A stretch of DNA of 9,456 nt. It comes from a virus. Its lineage: Duplodnaviria; Heunggongvirae; Uroviricota; Caudoviricetes. Position numbers and translations under genes: made by a program. Below, in pieces: positions 1 through 7,939 of the stretch. The number at the start of each line of letters is the position of its first letter. Position 1 is the stretch's first letter. The stretch lies in the IMG/VR virus record IMGVR_UViG_2534681624_000015, one strand, 5' to 3'. Under the pieces are notes generated by a model. The model had not been told where the DNA came from, ran no database searches, and saw only the letters and a program-made list of their open reading frames with translations.

Positions 1-525
1 TTATACAGCTTTTTTTACATCGTCTTCTCTTGCCGGGAGGTTGTGTTCCTTATTTTCATACTGAGATAAAATCTCTCTCGCTTTTTCCGGCGGTAATGCT
101 TGAAGTGTCTGTAGGGTTCTTTGTTGTTCTACAGTAACCCCCAATGCTTCTAACGCTTTATCTTTGCTAACAATTGTCGGCATAAGACCTTTAATTCCTG
201 CCACACGAATGATCTCAATAGCCGCAGCTTGCTCATCAGGCGTTAAGAAACTCATTGCATAAACTAGCCGCTCATCAACTGTATGATGGCTTGGTACATG
301 TACTGGAGGGGTATCAGAAAATGATGCTCCCTTAATAGCCCTTTGGGTTTCTTCTGGTAAGCTGTTGATGTGATATTCATAAGCCACACCTTTTCCACCA
401 TGACGTTGACGTTTTACCCAATCTTCTGCCACAGCCTTTCTGGTAATGTTAGTCGCCAACTTTGGCACACCAGGCATCCCCTCCAGCTCTTTCGCATTAA
501 ACCATTCTTTGATTTCAAAAGACAT
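1..525 (-). CDS. c: Mu/D108-family immunity repressor (Repc), 174 aa
   Basis: Complete minus-strand ORF with stop at 1-3 and ATG at 523-525. C-terminus ...DDVKKAV resembles the Mu repressor C-terminal tail. N-terminal ~60 aa are paralogous to the N-terminus of the downstream transposase ([19 protein letters not shown]...WV.RQ...KGV), the known repressor/transposase DNA-binding domain relationship. Divergent from ner-A-B as in Mu. The 174-aa size fits a D108-type repressor (recalled, not searched). Confidence 0.85.
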   Translation of the reverse strand: MSFEIKEWFNAKELEGMPGVPKLATNITRKAVAEDWVKRQRHGGKGVAYEYHINSLPEETQRAIKGASFSDTPPVHVPSHHTVDERLVYAMSFLTPDEQAAAIEIIRVAGIKGLMPTIVSKDKALEALGVTVEQQRTLQTLQALPPEKAREILSQYENKEHNLPAREDDVKKAV

Positions 526-619
526 TGTTTAAAATCCCAATGATTTCATTAAAGTTGAAAAAATCACTTTAAATTTCAAATAATTAATCAAGATGCTGTA
601 AAATCTTTTCAAATCATCA

Positions 620-648
620 TTGATTCCAAAAAGATTTCACTGTACATT
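620..648 (+). promoter_or_regulatory. Candidate early promoter Pe (-35 TTGATT 620-625, 17-bp spacer, -10 TACATT 643-648)
   Basis: Sigma70-like hexamers with 17-bp spacing reading toward ner; the predicted start (~655) sits just before the Ner operator palindrome. Pattern match by eye only. Confidence 0.4.
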
Positions 649-658
649 GCTCGATATG

Positions 659-688
659 CCGTGAGCTACTTTGCAGAGTAGCTCACGG
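659..688. promoter_or_regulatory. Ner operator: perfect inverted repeat CCGTGAGCTAC(T)-spacer-(A)GTAGCTCACGG
   Basis: Directly seen: 11-bp arms at 659-669 and 678-688 are exact reverse complements with an 8-bp spacer (12-bp arms with 6-bp spacer if the flanking T/A pair is included). It lies about 25 bp upstream of the ner start. It matches my recollection of the D108 Ner binding site (two 11-bp inverted repeats separated by 8 bp). Confidence 0.6.
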
Positions 689-712
689 GTGAATCTGAAA
701 GGATTACATGAA

Positions 713-934
713 ATGCATATGAATAAAAGAGCTAACCGCCAAGACTGGCATCGGGCTGACATCGTTGCTGAGTTACGAAAACGCAATATGTCACTGGCCG
801 AATTGGGAAGATCGAATCATCTTTCGTCTTCAACATTAAAAAATGCTTTAGATAAGAGATACCCAAAAGCGGAAAAAATCATTGCAGATGCATTGGGAAT
901 GACACCGCAGGATATCTGGCCATCTCGATACTAG
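713..934 (+). CDS. ner: Ner, small DNA-binding negative regulator of early/repressor transcription (73 aa)
   Basis: ORF frame 671..934. I prefer ATG at 713 (RBS AAAGGA at 698-703, 9-nt spacing; second ATG at 719) over the TTG at 671, which lies inside the operator palindrome. Product [33 protein letters not shown]...IWPSRY shows the Ner-family pattern (DWHRAD..., ...IWPSRY C-terminus). Sits immediately upstream of A as in Mu/D108. Confidence 0.85.
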
Positions 935-941
935 GTGCGCT

Positions 942-2930
942 ATGAAAGAGTGGTATACAGCGAAGGAATTGCTTGGTTTTGCTGGTTTGCCAAAGCAAGC
1001 AACTAACATTACACGTAAGGCACAAAGAGAAGGCTGGGTGTTTAGGCAAGTTACAGGTACTAAAGGTGTATCATTTGAATTCAATATCAAATCATTTCCT
1101 GTTGCATTACGTGCTGAAATTTTATTGCAACAAGGAGGTATTGAAACAAGCCAGGGCCGTTTTGAAATCGCCCGCCCCACGCTGGAAGCCCATGATTATG
1201 ATCGTGAGGCACTGTGGAGCAAATGGGATAATGCCAGCGATTCCCAGCGCAGACTTGCTGAAAAATGGTTGCCTGCGGTTCAGGCTGCAGACGAAATGCT
1301 GAACCAGGGGATTTCAACGAAAACGGCATTTGCGACCGTTGCAGGACATTACCAGGTCAGCGCATCCACTTTGCGAGACAAATATTACCAGGTACAGAAG
1401 TTTGCGAAGCCTGACTGGGCGGCTGCGCTTGTTGATGGACGTGGTGCATCCCGTCGCAACGTTCACAAAAGTGAATTTGACGAGGATGCCTGGCAGTTTC
1501 TGATTGCAGATTATCTGCGACCAGAAAAACCCGCCTTCCGCAAATGTTATGAGCGTCTGGAACTGGCAGCCCGCGAGCATGGCTGGAGTATTCCCTCCCG
1601 TGCCACGGCCTTTCGCCGGATTCAGCAACTGGACGAGGCAATGGTTGTTGCCTGCCGTGAAGGTGAACATGCACTGATGCATCTGATACCGGCACAACAG
1701 CGAACTGTGGAACACCTGGACGCCATGCAGTGGATCAACGGCGACGGTTATCTGCATAACGTCTTTGTACGCTGGTTTAACGGTGATGTGATCCGCCCGA
1801 AAACATGGTTCTGGCAGGATGTGAAAACCCGAAAAATTCTGGGCTGGCGCTGCGATGTGAGCGAGAACATTGATTCAATTCGCCTCTCGTTCATGGATGT
1901 TGTGACTCGCTACGGTATCCCGGAGGATTTTCACATCACCATTGATAACACCCGTGGTGCTGCGAATAAATGGCTGACGGGAGGCGCGCCCAATCGCTAC
2001 CGCTTTAAGGTAAAAGAGGACGATCCAAAGGGACTGTTTTTACTGATGGGCGCGAAAATGCACTGGACAAGCGTTGTTGCCGGTAAAGGCTGGGGCCAGG
2101 CAAAACCTGTTGAACGTGCTTTCGGTGTTGGTGGGCTTGAGGAATACGTTGATAAGCATCCGGCACTGGCTGGCGCATATACGGGGCCAAATCCTCAGGC
2201 AAAACCTGATAACTATGGCGACCGCGCTGTTGATGCAGAGCTGTTTCTGAAAACCCTTGCCGAAGGTGTGGCGATGTTCAATGCCAGAACAGGCCGTGAA
2301 ACAGAAATGTGCGGGGGCAAACTCTCGTTTGATGATGTTTTCGAGCGTGAATACGCCAGAACGATTGTGCGTAAGCCAACCGAAGAACAAAAACGGATGC
2401 TGTTACTGCCTGCCGAGGCGGTGAACGTTTCACGCAAAGGCGAGTTTACGCTTAAAGTTGGCGGCTCCCTTAAAGGCGCGAAAAACGTTTATTACAACAT
2501 GGCATTAATGAATGCCGGCGTGAAAAAAGTTGTGGTCAGGTTTGATCCGCAGCAGCTACACAGCACGGTTTATTGTTACACCCTGGACGGTCGGTTTATC
2601 TGTGAAGCGGAATGTCTGGCACCTGTTGCGTTTAATGATGCTGCGGCAGGCCGTGAATATCGCCGCCGCCAGAAACAACTGAAATCTGCGACGAAAGCAG
2701 CGATTAAGGCACAGAAACAAATGGATGCACTGGAAGTGGCAGAGCTGCTGCCGCAGATAGCCGAACCTGAAGCACCAGAATCACGAATTGTCGGCATTTT
2801 CCGGCCTTCCGGTAATACGGAACGGGTGAAGAATCAGGAGCGTGATGATGAATACGAAACTGAGCGTGATGAATATCTGAATCATTCGCTGGATATTCTG
2901 GAACAGAACAGACGTAAAAAAGCCATTTAA
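942..2930 (+). CDS. A: Mu-type DDE transposase MuA (662 aa)
   Basis: Long ORF starting 7 bp after the ner stop. Catalytic DDE triad at D268 (WINGDGY), D335 (HITIDNT) and E391 (KPVERAF), matching Mu D269/D336/E392 with a one-residue offset. C-terminus ...[10 protein letters not shown] is the MuA tail recognised by ClpX. The N-terminal domain is paralogous to the repressor N-terminus. Confidence 0.95.
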
Positions 2931-2968: not shown

Positions 2969-3907
2969 ATGAATATTTCCGATATTCGCGCAGGACTGCG
3001 CACGCTTGTAGAAAATGAAGAAACCACCTTTAAACAAATTGCTCTTGAGAGCGGACTTTCTACCGGAACTATCAGTAGTTTTATCAATGATAAGTACAAC
3101 GGGGATAACGAGCGTGTTTCACAAATGCTGCAACGCTGGCTGGAAAAATATCATGCAGTTGCAGAACTACCTGAACCGCCCCGCTTTGTGGAAACGCAGA
3201 CGGTAAAACAAATCTGGACAAGTATGCGTTTTGCCAGCCTGACTGAAAGTATTGCTGTTGTATGTGGCAATCCTGGTGTGGGCAAAACCGAAGCGGCCCG
3301 TGAATATCGCCGCACCAATAACAATGTCTGGATGATCACCATTACGCCATCCTGTGCCAGCGTTCTGGAATGCCTGACTGAACTGGCGTTTGAGCTGGGA
3401 ATGAATGACGCACCACGCCGTAAAGGGCCACTCTCCCGTGCCCTGCGACGTCGCCTTGAAGGTACACAGGGGCTGGTTATCATCGACGAAGCTGATCATC
3501 TTGGTGCCGAAGTTCTGGAAGAACTCCGCCTGTTACAGGAATCAACCCGCACTGGCCTTGTGCTGATGGGAAATCACCGGGTTTATTCAAATATGACGGG
3601 AGGTAACAGAACGGTTGAATTTGCCCGTCTGTTTTCCCGTATTGCAAAGCGTACTGCAATTAATAAAACCAAAAAAGCCGATGTAAAAGCTATTGCGGAT
3701 GCCTGGCAGATTAACGGCGAAAAAGAACTGGAGTTATTACAGCAGATTGCGCAGAAACCAGGTGCGCTTCGCATTCTGAATCATTCACTTCGCCTTGCCG
3801 CCATGACGGCTCACGGTAAAGGTGAGCGTGTTAACGAAGATTATCTGCGTCAGGCTTTCCGTGAATTAGACCTGGACGTTGATATTTCAACGCTGCTGCG
3901 TAATTAA
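2969..3907 (+). CDS. B: MuB, AAA+ ATPase target-DNA activator of transposition (312 aa)
   Basis: 312-aa ORF directly after A with RBS ACGAGG 8 nt upstream. Walker A GNPGVGKT and Walker B LVIIDEADHL are present. Length and position match Mu B. Confidence 0.95.
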   Translation: MNISDIRAGLRTLVENEETTFKQIALESGLSTGTISSFINDKYNGDNERVSQMLQRWLEKYHAVAELPEPPRFVETQTVKQIWTSMRFASLTESIAVVCGNPGVGKTEAAREYRRTNNNVWMITITPSCASVLECLTELAFELGMNDAPRRKGPLSRALRRRLEGTQGLVIIDEADHLGAEVLEELRLLQESTRTGLVLMGNHRVYSNMTGGNRTVEFARLFSRIAKRTAINKTKKADVKAIADAWQINGEKELELLQQIAQKPGALRILNHSLRLAAMTAHGKGERVNEDYLRQAFRELDLDVDISTLLRN

Positions 3908-6023: not shown

Positions 6024-6563
6024 ATGGTTGATGCAAAAATTCTGAATGGTGTCAGCATATTATTACGGGCTTACGGGCGCCTGACCTGCGGAGTTCTGGC
6101 TGAAAAAATGAATATGCTGCCCTCGTCAATGGTGTATTTCCTGCGTGATGCGGTTGATGCCGGAGTGCTCACCGAATGCAACGGATTTTATGACGTACCG
6201 CGTCCCCGTACAGAGCCGCCTGTAAGACGAAACGCAACTGAGCAGCCTGCTGTTGATGATGCGGTGTGGTGCAACTGGCGTCGCTCATTACCCTGGGTGG
6301 AAGGTAATACCATCCCTGCGCTGGCAAAAGAGTTTGCGACAGGCGTACTGACCTGTGAGTCAGTTCACATCGTTGCAGAAGTGGATGACGAGATGTGCAA
6401 ACAGGGAATGCCCCGTTTTGTGATGGCTTATATCGATATCTGGCTGGGGCGGTTTATTTGCAGTTCAGGCGCCTGGAATATCACCGACCATGTACTGCGT
6501 TATCTCATCATTGATTTTTCATCAGCACCGGGTGTGGTGCAGGAGGCTGGTTGTGAAATTTGA
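6024..6563 (+). CDS. Hypothetical early protein, N-terminal winged-helix-like segment (179 aa)
   Basis: RBS GAGGA 7 nt upstream of ATG. N-terminal LLRAYGRLTCGVLAEKMNMLPSSMVYFLRDAVDAGVLT resembles a wHTH recognition unit. Its stop overlaps the start of the next gene. Confidence 0.7.
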   Translation: MVDAKILNGVSILLRAYGRLTCGVLAEKMNMLPSSMVYFLRDAVDAGVLTECNGFYDVPRPRTEPPVRRNATEQPAVDDAVWCNWRRSLPWVEGNTIPALAKEFATGVLTCESVHIVAEVDDEMCKQGMPRFVMAYIDIWLGRFICSSGAWNITDHVLRYLIIDFSSAPGVVQEAGCEI

Positions 6564-7248
6564 AGACTGGGGTATTGATAAAAGTTGTGGCCGGGACGTC
6601 CTGGTGTACAAAAACTGTAGCGTGATTGAAGGAGAAGATGCCTGGCAGGTTCTGGATATACTTCGTTCTGCTTTATGCAGAGCTGGCTATGTTACGCCAG
6701 CGTCAGTTAATGGCGGAACTGCCACTACCTGTATCAGAAAGCAACTTTATAGTTTTTATACAGCCTACAACCAATGGTTAAAGAATGGGGCAATGGAGAC
6801 GGGCGATGATGTATTTATCCGGGCTGCCGGATTATGTGCCAATGCTTACGATTATTTTGAATCAACCGGTGCAGACAGTGAAGCCGCATTAGAACAATTA
6901 CATGCGGACTTTATCTCAGCAGGGCTGAATGCGATATTGCCATTTAACCGGGAGAGCGAACATTACATAAACGAAAGCAAATTAGCCAGATGCCACCTTA
7001 ATTCAGCACGTGTGGCATGGGTTGAAAAACACTGTATTAGTTCTGATTCAGAAATAACGGGGAAAAAGACAGTCGGTGAAACATCGTATTCGTGGCCGGG
7101 GACATTTACCACGGTGAAACAGGAATGCCCGACCTGCGGGAATGAATCCCCTGAATATCTGAAAGAGTGCCCTCATTGTGGCGGGCAGAAATGCAACCAC
7201 TGCGATATGGGCGATGACACGGCGTGCATGAATTGTGAAGGTGAGTGA
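6553..7248 (+). CDS. Hypothetical early protein with C-terminal 8-Cys double zinc-ribbon-like motif (231 aa from GTG 6553)
   Basis: ORF frame 6490..7248. I prefer GTG at 6553 because a canonical AGGAGG (6541-6546) sits 6 nt upstream and it overlaps the upstream stop by 11 nt (translational coupling); the ATG at 6490 has no RBS and would overlap 74 nt. C-terminus CPTCG-x11-CPHCG-x4-CNHC-x7-CMNC. Confidence 0.7.
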   Translation: MKFEDWGIDKSCGRDVLVYKNCSVIEGEDAWQVLDILRSALCRAGYVTPASVNGGTATTCIRKQLYSFYTAYNQWLKNGAMETGDDVFIRAAGLCANAYDYFESTGADSEAALEQLHADFISAGLNAILPFNRESEHYINESKLARCHLNSARVAWVEKHCISSDSEITGKKTVGETSYSWPGTFTTVKQECPTCGNESPEYLKECPHCGGQKCNHCDMGDDTACMNCEGE

Positions 7249-7249
7249 T

Positions 7250-7561
7250 ATGAATAATGGTGTATTTTCAAAATCAGAAGAGCTTGCCGCCCTGCTGATT
7301 GCCGGTGGTTTGCCGAAAAAAGAAGTGCATGACTTTGTGAGTTTTGTATATGAGTCGTCTCATGAAAAAGCTATTGATGAAGTCATGGCGTACCGGTTTG
7401 GCATTATTGCTGAGTCACTGAGTCCTCACTGGATTATTGAAAATCTCCGCACTATTGCTGATGGTAACAATAAAGTGGCGGCTGTCGCCGCCCTTGATGC
7501 GCTGCAACGTATGAACAGGGAACTATTCAATCCCGAGTTTCTTTTTAAGAAACGAGGTTAA
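7250..7561 (+). CDS. Hypothetical early protein (103 aa from ATG 7250; GTG 7235 alternative)
   Basis: ATG at 7250 follows the upstream stop (TGAtATG) with GGTGA 6 nt upstream. No motif recognised. Its 3' end overlaps the 3' end of a convergent minus-strand ORF by 39 bp. Confidence 0.65.
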   Translation: MNNGVFSKSEELAALLIAGGLPKKEVHDFVSFVYESSHEKAIDEVMAYRFGIIAESLSPHWIIENLRTIADGNNKVAAVAALDALQRMNRELFNPEFLFKKRG

Positions 7562-7939
7562 CCACTGTTTGCCGACGTCTGTTACGAGCGTCATCGGGGC
7601 GTCGGCAAGGTCCTGTTTTATGCGCTCAAGAATGGGTTTTTGATGTAGTGCTTTCGCAAAATCATGACCATCTTGTGTAAGTCTGACACTGGTGCCTGAA
7701 TATGAATATCCGAGGCTTGTTGGGGTGAGACCAATGCTTTTTGCGGTGCCTGTTTCCAGATATCTGTTGCTGATAAAACCATTTTCAACCAGCAACAGAA
7801 GATGGAAAACCAGCTTCTGATGGCTGTCGCTGTGCCGCTGAGAACAATCCCAGCCGACATCTTCCAGTCGAATGAATGCGGTGTCGGCCTCCAGAAAAAC
7901 ATCAAATATTCTGGCTATCTCGTCATAATCAATTTTCAT
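7523..7939 (-). CDS. Reverse-oriented hypothetical protein (138 aa), possible small winged-helix-like phage accessory protein
   Basis: Only ORF of 60 aa or more covering 7562-7801 on either strand apart from a shorter minus-strand ORF in another frame. Minus-strand ATG at 7937-7939 preceded by AAGGA at ~7-nt spacing; non-repetitive, balanced composition. Segments KLVFHLLLLVENGFI and RLTQDGHDF and the C-terminal KKKLG recall a small phage-associated domain family of unknown function (DUF2513-like, from memory, unverified). Confidence 0.55.
   Translation of the reverse strand: MKIDYDEIARIFDVFLEADTAFIRLEDVGWDCSQRHSDSHQKLVFHLLLLVENGFISNRYLETGTAKSIGLTPTSLGYSYSGTSVRLTQDGHDFAKALHQKPILERIKQDLADAPMTLVTDVGKQWLTSFLKKKLGIE

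Follow-up and report, generated by a model that had tools for sequence, protein, structure and literature searches.

Do the repressor and the transposase of a Mu-like element begin with one and the same DNA-binding domain, and would the two proteins then read the same sites? For Mu and D108 the shared domain and the two-level repression that goes with it have been textbook matter since 1985-89. The question arises again with the stretch of DNA analysed here, a window of 9,456 nt, for which an initial annotation had proposed that the N-termini of c and A are paralogous, that repressor and transposase compete through them for operator and enhancer DNA, and that the domain is distinct from that of Mu, consistent with a joint exchange of c, the operators and the A N-terminus. 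Such a domain explains how a repressor can silence at two levels, the transcription of the transposition genes and the direct use of the enhancer by the transposase, and why the immunity specificity of Mu-like elements has to swap in one piece that includes part of the transposase gene.

The early region and its genes

To judge from its sequence, the window belongs to a Mu-like phage or prophage carrying D108/SfMu-type immunity, of which it forms the early end. The ORF map, Pfam assignments and megablast place the 9,456 nt at the left, early, end of a transposable phage of this type and of the Mu family: c, ner, A and B are recognizable as ORFs, and the nucleotide and protein matches are to SfMu, Mu_3F6 and D108, with 95-96% nucleotide identity from position 1 in megablast against phage records, whereas the nucleotide match to Mu begins only at 1122-1130 of the window (blastn and megablast). 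The gene order, with c leftward, a control region, and ner, A and B rightward, is that annotated in the D108 record (c, ner, A, B), and the c domain, Ner and the A N-terminus are of the D108 type rather than the Mu type, so that in order and in proteins the region corresponds to a D108-type immunity module. The features on which the argument relies are the following.

1-525, minus strand: c, the lysogenic repressor (174 aa; PF02316, E = 1.2e-44); the window begins at the c stop codon
355-513, minus strand: c residues 5-57, DNA-binding domain of the winged helix-turn-helix type with the start of A as its paralogue (BLASTP)
526-712, no strand assigned: c-ner control region (187 bp, 69% A+T), with candidate operators, a candidate transpositional enhancer and candidate divergent promoters, proposed from motifs and hexamers
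659-688, no strand assigned: inverted repeat, candidate Ner binding site (perfect 11-bp arms, 8-bp spacer)
713-934, plus strand: ner, negative regulator of early transcription (73 aa; PF13693 HTH_35, E = 1.2e-28)
942-2930, plus strand: A, DDE transposase (662 aa; Pfam DDE_2, HTH_Tnp_Mu_2, HTH_Tnp_Mu_1, Mu-transpos_C)
942-1100, plus strand: A residues 1-53, paralogous part of the I-alpha (enhancer-binding) domain (BLASTP, PDB 1TNS)
1110-1135, no strand assigned: mosaic junction at A codons ~57-65, where the blastn matches start (Mu at 1130, the L007 type at 1110)
2969-3907, plus strand: B (312 aa; Pfam MuB)

Downstream of its N-terminus, A has an end-binding subdomain (PF09039, 3.9e-48), a DDE catalytic core (PF02914, 2e-136) and a C-terminal domain (PF09299, 7e-16). 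The interval 1-1150 runs from c through the control region and ner to codon 70 of A; these first 1150 bp were found in 45 of 5426 complete E. coli genomes, in a single copy in each and always on the chromosome. Accessory ORFs that are absent from both Mu and D108 yielded no function in PADLOC and Pfam scans.

The domain shared by c and A

The two N-terminal peptides on which the annotation had based its claim are both encoded in the window, at 355-513 on the minus strand and at 942-1100 on the plus strand, and the many identities attributed to them are borne out. When c was compared with the whole of A by BLASTP, a single significant segment was obtained, which joins c 5-57 to A 1-53 without gaps, with 32 of 53 residues identical (60%), 39 of 53 positive and E = 1e-18; for the isolated domains the E value is 8e-23, and the identity run ATNITRKA occurs in both proteins. 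The annotation had named a lack of statistical significance as the outcome that would speak against it; the Smith-Waterman score of the pair is 165, against 21.7 +/- 4.4 for 1000 shuffles (z = 32.7), and no shuffle reached it. Outside this segment c residues 58-174 have no similarity to A residues 54-260 (z = 0.6), nor to the remainder of A up to its end (z = 0.0). Given the E value, the z score and the lack of similarity beyond the domain, the paralogy of c and A is therefore real, strong and limited to the first ~55 residues.

Both N-termini belong to a known domain family. PF02316 (Mu DNA-binding domain, HTH_Tnp_Mu_1), with a gathering threshold of 23.3 bits, is matched by c at 152.4 bits and by A at 137.5 bits. 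Among PDB entries the c N-terminus matches 1TNS/1TNT (MuA) with E = 2.4e-8 and 1G4D/1QPM (Mu repressor) with E = 2.8e-4, and the A N-terminus matches the same entries with E = 7.7e-14 (1TNS comprising MuA residues 1-76) and E = 9.2e-5, respectively. The possibility that the resemblance arose by chance or from composition, in favor of which no point was found, can be set aside altogether: besides the BLASTP statistics and the 1000 shuffles, c and A were each, independently, matched to PF02316 and to the PDB entries named above, and the same relationship between c and A recurs in 34 loci from other genomes. The PF02316 match spans ~134 positions in both proteins and thus extends beyond the 53-residue similarity; since c and A have no similarity past the N-terminal domain despite this long match, the explanation must be that the profile takes in proteins of both classes. 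The fold of 1TNS and 1G4D is a winged helix-turn-helix in which the second helix and the wing contact DNA, and helix 2 of the c and A domains is presumably the recognition helix. An AlphaFold2 model of c made from the single sequence had a mean pLDDT of 42.8 and a pTM of 0.31, with values below 50 at the N-terminus, too low for the fold to be read from it.

An exchangeable specificity block and its variation

Pairwise alignment of the c and A domains with each other and with those of Mu and D108 upheld the paralogy as well as the difference from Mu. Over the 53-residue domain core, identity to the Mu counterpart is 28% for c and 36% for A, compared with 60% between c and A of the window; in Mu the two cores are 46% identical, and between the window and Mu types the values are 28% for c-c and 36-40% for A-A. 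In each of the two phages c and A are therefore more alike than either is to its counterpart in the other phage. Over the whole proteins, identity to Mu amounts to 30% for c, 52% for Ner and 93.4% for A. The C-terminal part of c is homologous to that of Mu c (z = 19.5), and VKKAV ends both proteins.

The joint exchange that had been proposed for c, the operators and the A N-terminus agrees with the nucleotide comparison, in which nothing to the left of 1130 matches Mu and identity to the right of it is 98.3% (blastn); in a three-way alignment near-identity begins at the codons for QQGGIETS, at about A codon 63. A third immunity type, represented by S. flexneri SFBU1023 and E. coli ECMA0423 (L007 and L008), is 96.9% identical to the window from 1110 onward. 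The right-hand boundary is thus shared by three E. coli/Shigella types, namely D108/SfMu, Mu and L007. With the Mu match starting at ~1130 and the L007 match at 1110, the exchangeable block ends within A, at a boundary that recurs in the three types; by these alignments it runs from c across the control region and ner into A, where it takes in the recognition part of the first domain.

The relationship was followed further in a survey of Mu-like elements, for which one genome per species was searched with A residues 64-453, the N-terminus being left out of the query. This returned 80 loci; with the window, D108 and Mu added to them, 75 loci had enough upstream sequence. A divergent upstream ORF with an N-terminus paralogous to that of the local A (z = 23-38) was present in 34 of the 75; in 41 of the 75 no such ORF was found within the ~2.2 kb examined. 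After removal of near-duplicates 28 non-redundant elements were retained. Own pairs, with c and A from one element, have a mean identity of 55% (range 46-63%), cross pairs one of 39%, and none of 20000 random re-pairings reached the mean of the own pairs. The excess is largest in the turn and helix 2 (61% for own pairs vs 33% for cross pairs) and smaller in helix 1 (47% vs 38%) and in the wing (62% vs 48%). The distances among c domains and among A domains are correlated (r = 0.78), a value that, linked genes being co-inherited, is not by itself proof of co-evolution. Mu-like A genes number at least six in one Avibacterium genome, and their N-termini are of different types.

How c and A came to resemble each other can be read in two ways. 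A recent duplication, or gene conversion within the element, would make the similarity a historical accident rather than a result of selection for a shared target, and some observations are in keeping with it: the similarity of the two domains can be made out, faintly, in the DNA, with 100 of 159 nucleotides identical in register (63%), the c gene of the window finds the A gene of D108 in blastn (72.5% over 80 nt), and in the types for which no close relatives were sampled (the window, Mu, L007 and L063) no orthologue is closer than the partner domain. We nevertheless consider this origin improbable. An excess of identical codons, sought as a mark of recent gene conversion, was not significant, 18 of the 32 identical residues sharing their codon where 14.4 were expected (P = 0.11); agreement at the third position is limited to 25 of 53 codons, and synonymous sites are saturated. 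Moreover, no more than 3 of 28 c domains, and 5 of the 28 A domains, have their own partner as the nearest domain, and wherever close relatives were sampled c lies nearer to other c's and A nearer to other A's, while the excess identity sits in the predicted recognition helix, as selection on specificity predicts. Because of this concentration in helix 2, the grouping of c with c and of A with A, and the saturated synonymous sites, the sequence comparison favors a duplication of old date, after which selection would have acted for a DNA specificity common to both domains; occasional gene conversion between the c and A domains may have taken place.

The survey suggests that the rule relating c to A is general among Mu-like prophages that use this repressor type. 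Whether, in the Mu-like elements found in many Gammaproteobacteria, the immunity type is set by a co-varying block of three parts, the recognition helix of c, that of the A I-alpha domain and the operator/enhancer sites, with exchange at a recurrent breakpoint where I-alpha ends, is a proposal for which we see the chances as evenly balanced; if true, immunity groups would be predictable from sequence and orthogonal sets of repressor, enhancer and transposase could be designed.

The control region, the proposed competition and the known systems

In Mu an IHF site lies between operator clusters. The IHF consensus WATCAANNNNTTR has no match in the window, and such a site between operator clusters could therefore not be located by consensus. 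What stands out in and next to the control region is a repeated motif, GATTYC / WTTTCAW, which is our own reading of repeats in A+T-rich DNA. It occurs in one orientation at 511, 542, 573, 606, 622 and 633, with four of the five spacings between neighbors at 27-33 nt and one, from 606 to 622, of 16 nt, and it is 10-18 times denser in the control region than in the rest of the window. The islands conserved against D108 coincide with these motifs, with diverged blocks between them, and a search of the corresponding regions of Mu and L007 found no GATTYC. The GATTYC-type repeats are candidates for the sites that both the c and the A domains would read. Promoter-like hexamers are found at 555-584 and 575-604. 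The inverted repeat at 659-688, CCGTGAGCTAC-n8-GTAGCTCACGG, is unchanged in D108, in SfMu and in a prophage of E. coli; it would fit the Ner site, for which it stands as a candidate.

The mechanism attributed to the shared domain, by which repressor and transposase would compete for operator and enhancer DNA, has been shown for Mu. The Mu transpositional enhancer (IAS) partly overlaps the repressor-bound operators O1-O3, and the MuA N-terminal domain contacts the enhancer by way of one region, the Mu ends being read by a different one (reviewed in PMC3145075, which cites Mizuuchi & Mizuuchi 1989, Leung et al. 1989 and Surette et al. 1989 for the overlap and for the contact). The homology of the repressor (Rep) to the transposase has likewise been noted (PMC3820752, references 51 and 52). 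The annotated mechanism thus holds for Mu, whereas for the D108 type operator/enhancer competition is something we infer by analogy. It can be added that IAS-bound repressor reportedly inhibited the in vitro reaction directly, a result said to come from Mizuuchi & Mizuuchi in 1989.

For the present element the following scheme would account for the data. The repressor and the transposase each begin with a winged helix-turn-helix domain of ~55 residues, descended from one ancestral domain, and, because their predicted recognition helices are nearly the same, both should read the same short sites between c and ner. The region would then play a dual role in the manner of Mu: as operators it would let the repressor shut off the early promoter, and as the enhancer (IAS), which in Mu is the same region, it would help A to assemble the transpososome. 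Since the region would be operators and enhancer at once, bound repressor would not only block transcription of A and B but also keep any A protein already present from using the enhancer. Specificity would be divided over three parts matched to one another, namely the c domain, the binding sites and the first ~60 residues of A, and these travel together as one exchangeable block ending near A codon 63.

A common set of sites for c and A in this element is suggested by the segment formed by the turn and helix 2, in which the two proteins of the window agree at 10 of 12 positions (83%), whereas any pairing with Mu c or Mu A gives 17-33%. In another reading the shared domain would let the repressor act mainly at the phage ends, or would be a common fold with different specificities, and the D108 type would do without operator/enhancer competition; the values just given are hard to reconcile with divergent specificities. 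The Mu repressor has been reported to bind the Mu ends as well (PMC3820752), and the enhancer role of 526-712 in this element is putative, both of which would suit that reading; in Mu, however, it is the N-terminal subdomain of A that reads the enhancer, and reading the ends falls to its other subdomains (PMC3145075). We regard action at the ends, or a shared fold with divergent specificities, as most improbable. Competition for common sites is the preferred reading, and we consider it very probable that the window carries a D108/SfMu-type module for the control of immunity and transposition, in which c and A start with one ancestral domain, share sites and are exchanged as a block.

Mu resembles the window in having PF02316 at the same place in both proteins, in the divergent layout of c and ner-A-B, and in an A gene that is 98% identical in nucleotides from codon ~63 onward; it differs in its heterologous specificity block, in the motifs of its control region and in a c protein of 196 aa rather than 174 aa. 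D108 (GenBank GQ357916) is far closer, with the same gene order, immunity type and N-terminal paralogy of c and A; identity to the window is 98% for the c core, 94% for the A core, 98.6% for Ner and 99.1% for the whole of A, and the candidate Ner palindrome and most of the motif islands of the control region are kept. Differences from D108 are seen in c, which is 90% identical as a whole, with changes mostly in the linker after the domain (residues ~60-85), and in the control region, in blocks between the conserved islands. The best overall match is SfMu (KP010268), with 95.9% identity over 85% of the window, the remaining 15% being uncovered; its proteins are identical to those of the window as far as they were compared (the first 80 residues of c, Ner, and the first 84 residues of A) and its control region matches almost exactly. 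The published identities of SfMu c and Ner are 89% and 98% to D108, and 24% and 47% to Mu (PLoS One 2015;10:e0124053).

For D108 the paralogy of c and A, together with the point that the two are more alike than either is to its counterpart in the other phage, was announced in the title of a paper by Mizuuchi, Weisberg & Mizuuchi (Nucleic Acids Res 1986;14:3813; reference 52 of PMC3820752), and the corresponding finding for Mu is that of Harshey et al. (PNAS 1985;82:7676). The domain shared by c and A is accordingly already known, from D108 (1986) and from Mu (1985), and has its own Pfam family and two solved structures. Set beside these systems, the window is another, SfMu-like, allele of a known module, and the co-variation of the recognition helix found in the survey is a modest extension of the published result.

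Repeated and inverted motifs around the c–ner control region

Two kinds of short sequence elements are found from the start of c, the leftward lysogenic repressor gene, to ner, which codes for a negative regulator.

511-640, one orientation: GATTYC / WTTTCAW motif, candidate sites read by the c and A domains, six copies starting at 511, 542, 573, 606, 622 and 633
659-688: perfect 11-bp inverted repeat CCGTGAGCTAC-n8-GTAGCTCACGG, 25 nt before the start codon of ner

The majority of the spacings between the motif copies are about 31 nt, corresponding to about three helical turns, and the copy at 511 lies within the c coding sequence. The inverted repeat is unchanged in the alignment across D108, SfMu and one E. 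coli prophage; it is probably the operator of Ner.

Accessory reading frames of the early operon

Two ORFs were matched to families without an assigned function, one of them lying on the opposite strand within an otherwise rightward early operon.

6490-7248, + strand: 252-aa ORF, with a Cys-rich C-terminus containing several CxxC pairs
7523-7939, - strand: 138-aa ORF

The gp11 homologue overlaps at its end with the 252-aa ORF, which matches phrog_6418 and presents a weak match to the DnaJ zinc finger; sequence comparison with Mu and D108 gave no match in either phage for positions 6547-7076. The same comparison gave no match for segment 7260-7969, which holds the 138-aa ORF. This second ORF matches phrog_585, no match was obtained for it in Pfam and PADLOC scans, and it may constitute an accessory "moron" gene.

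Immunity types among Mu-like transposase loci

In the survey of Mu-like A genes, a third immunity type was found in two loci, L007 and L008.

About 1423-2500 (locus coordinates): third immunity type, S. flexneri SFBU1023 (L007) and E. coli ECMA0423 (L008)

In both, c and the A N-terminus (MREWISAIECMGLSGLPGSLMGVHKRAQREGW...) are unlike those of Mu and unlike those of D108, and from window position 1110 onward their A shares 97% identity with that of the window. In the genome of Avibacterium paragallinarum NCTC11296, N-terminal domain types differ among the Mu-like transposase genes, of which there are at least six (L074-L078, L084); three of these have a matching c paralogue upstream, and this strain looks like a host of several heteroimmune Mu-like prophages. 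Two short contigs of 1.5-1.6 kb assigned to Streptomyces sp. E11-3 (L014 and L042) code for MuA at 98-100% identity, the Mu-type N-terminus included; most likely they are phage Mu or E. coli DNA contaminating the assembly, and not a Streptomyces element.

Alleles and domains of the repressor

Residue 49 of c (window numbering) is Tyr in the window, SfMu and one E. coli prophage (GVAYEYH), and Asn in the deposited D108 repressor (L001, GQ357916; GVANEYH), where it could be a laboratory allele. Compared with Mu c, the DNA-binding core of the window repressor (gene at 1-525) presents only 28% identity; residues 86-174 are clearly homologous to the C-terminal part of Mu c (z = 19.5), and VKKAV forms the C-terminus of each protein. 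The window-type and Mu-type repressors therefore have their non-DNA-binding part in common.
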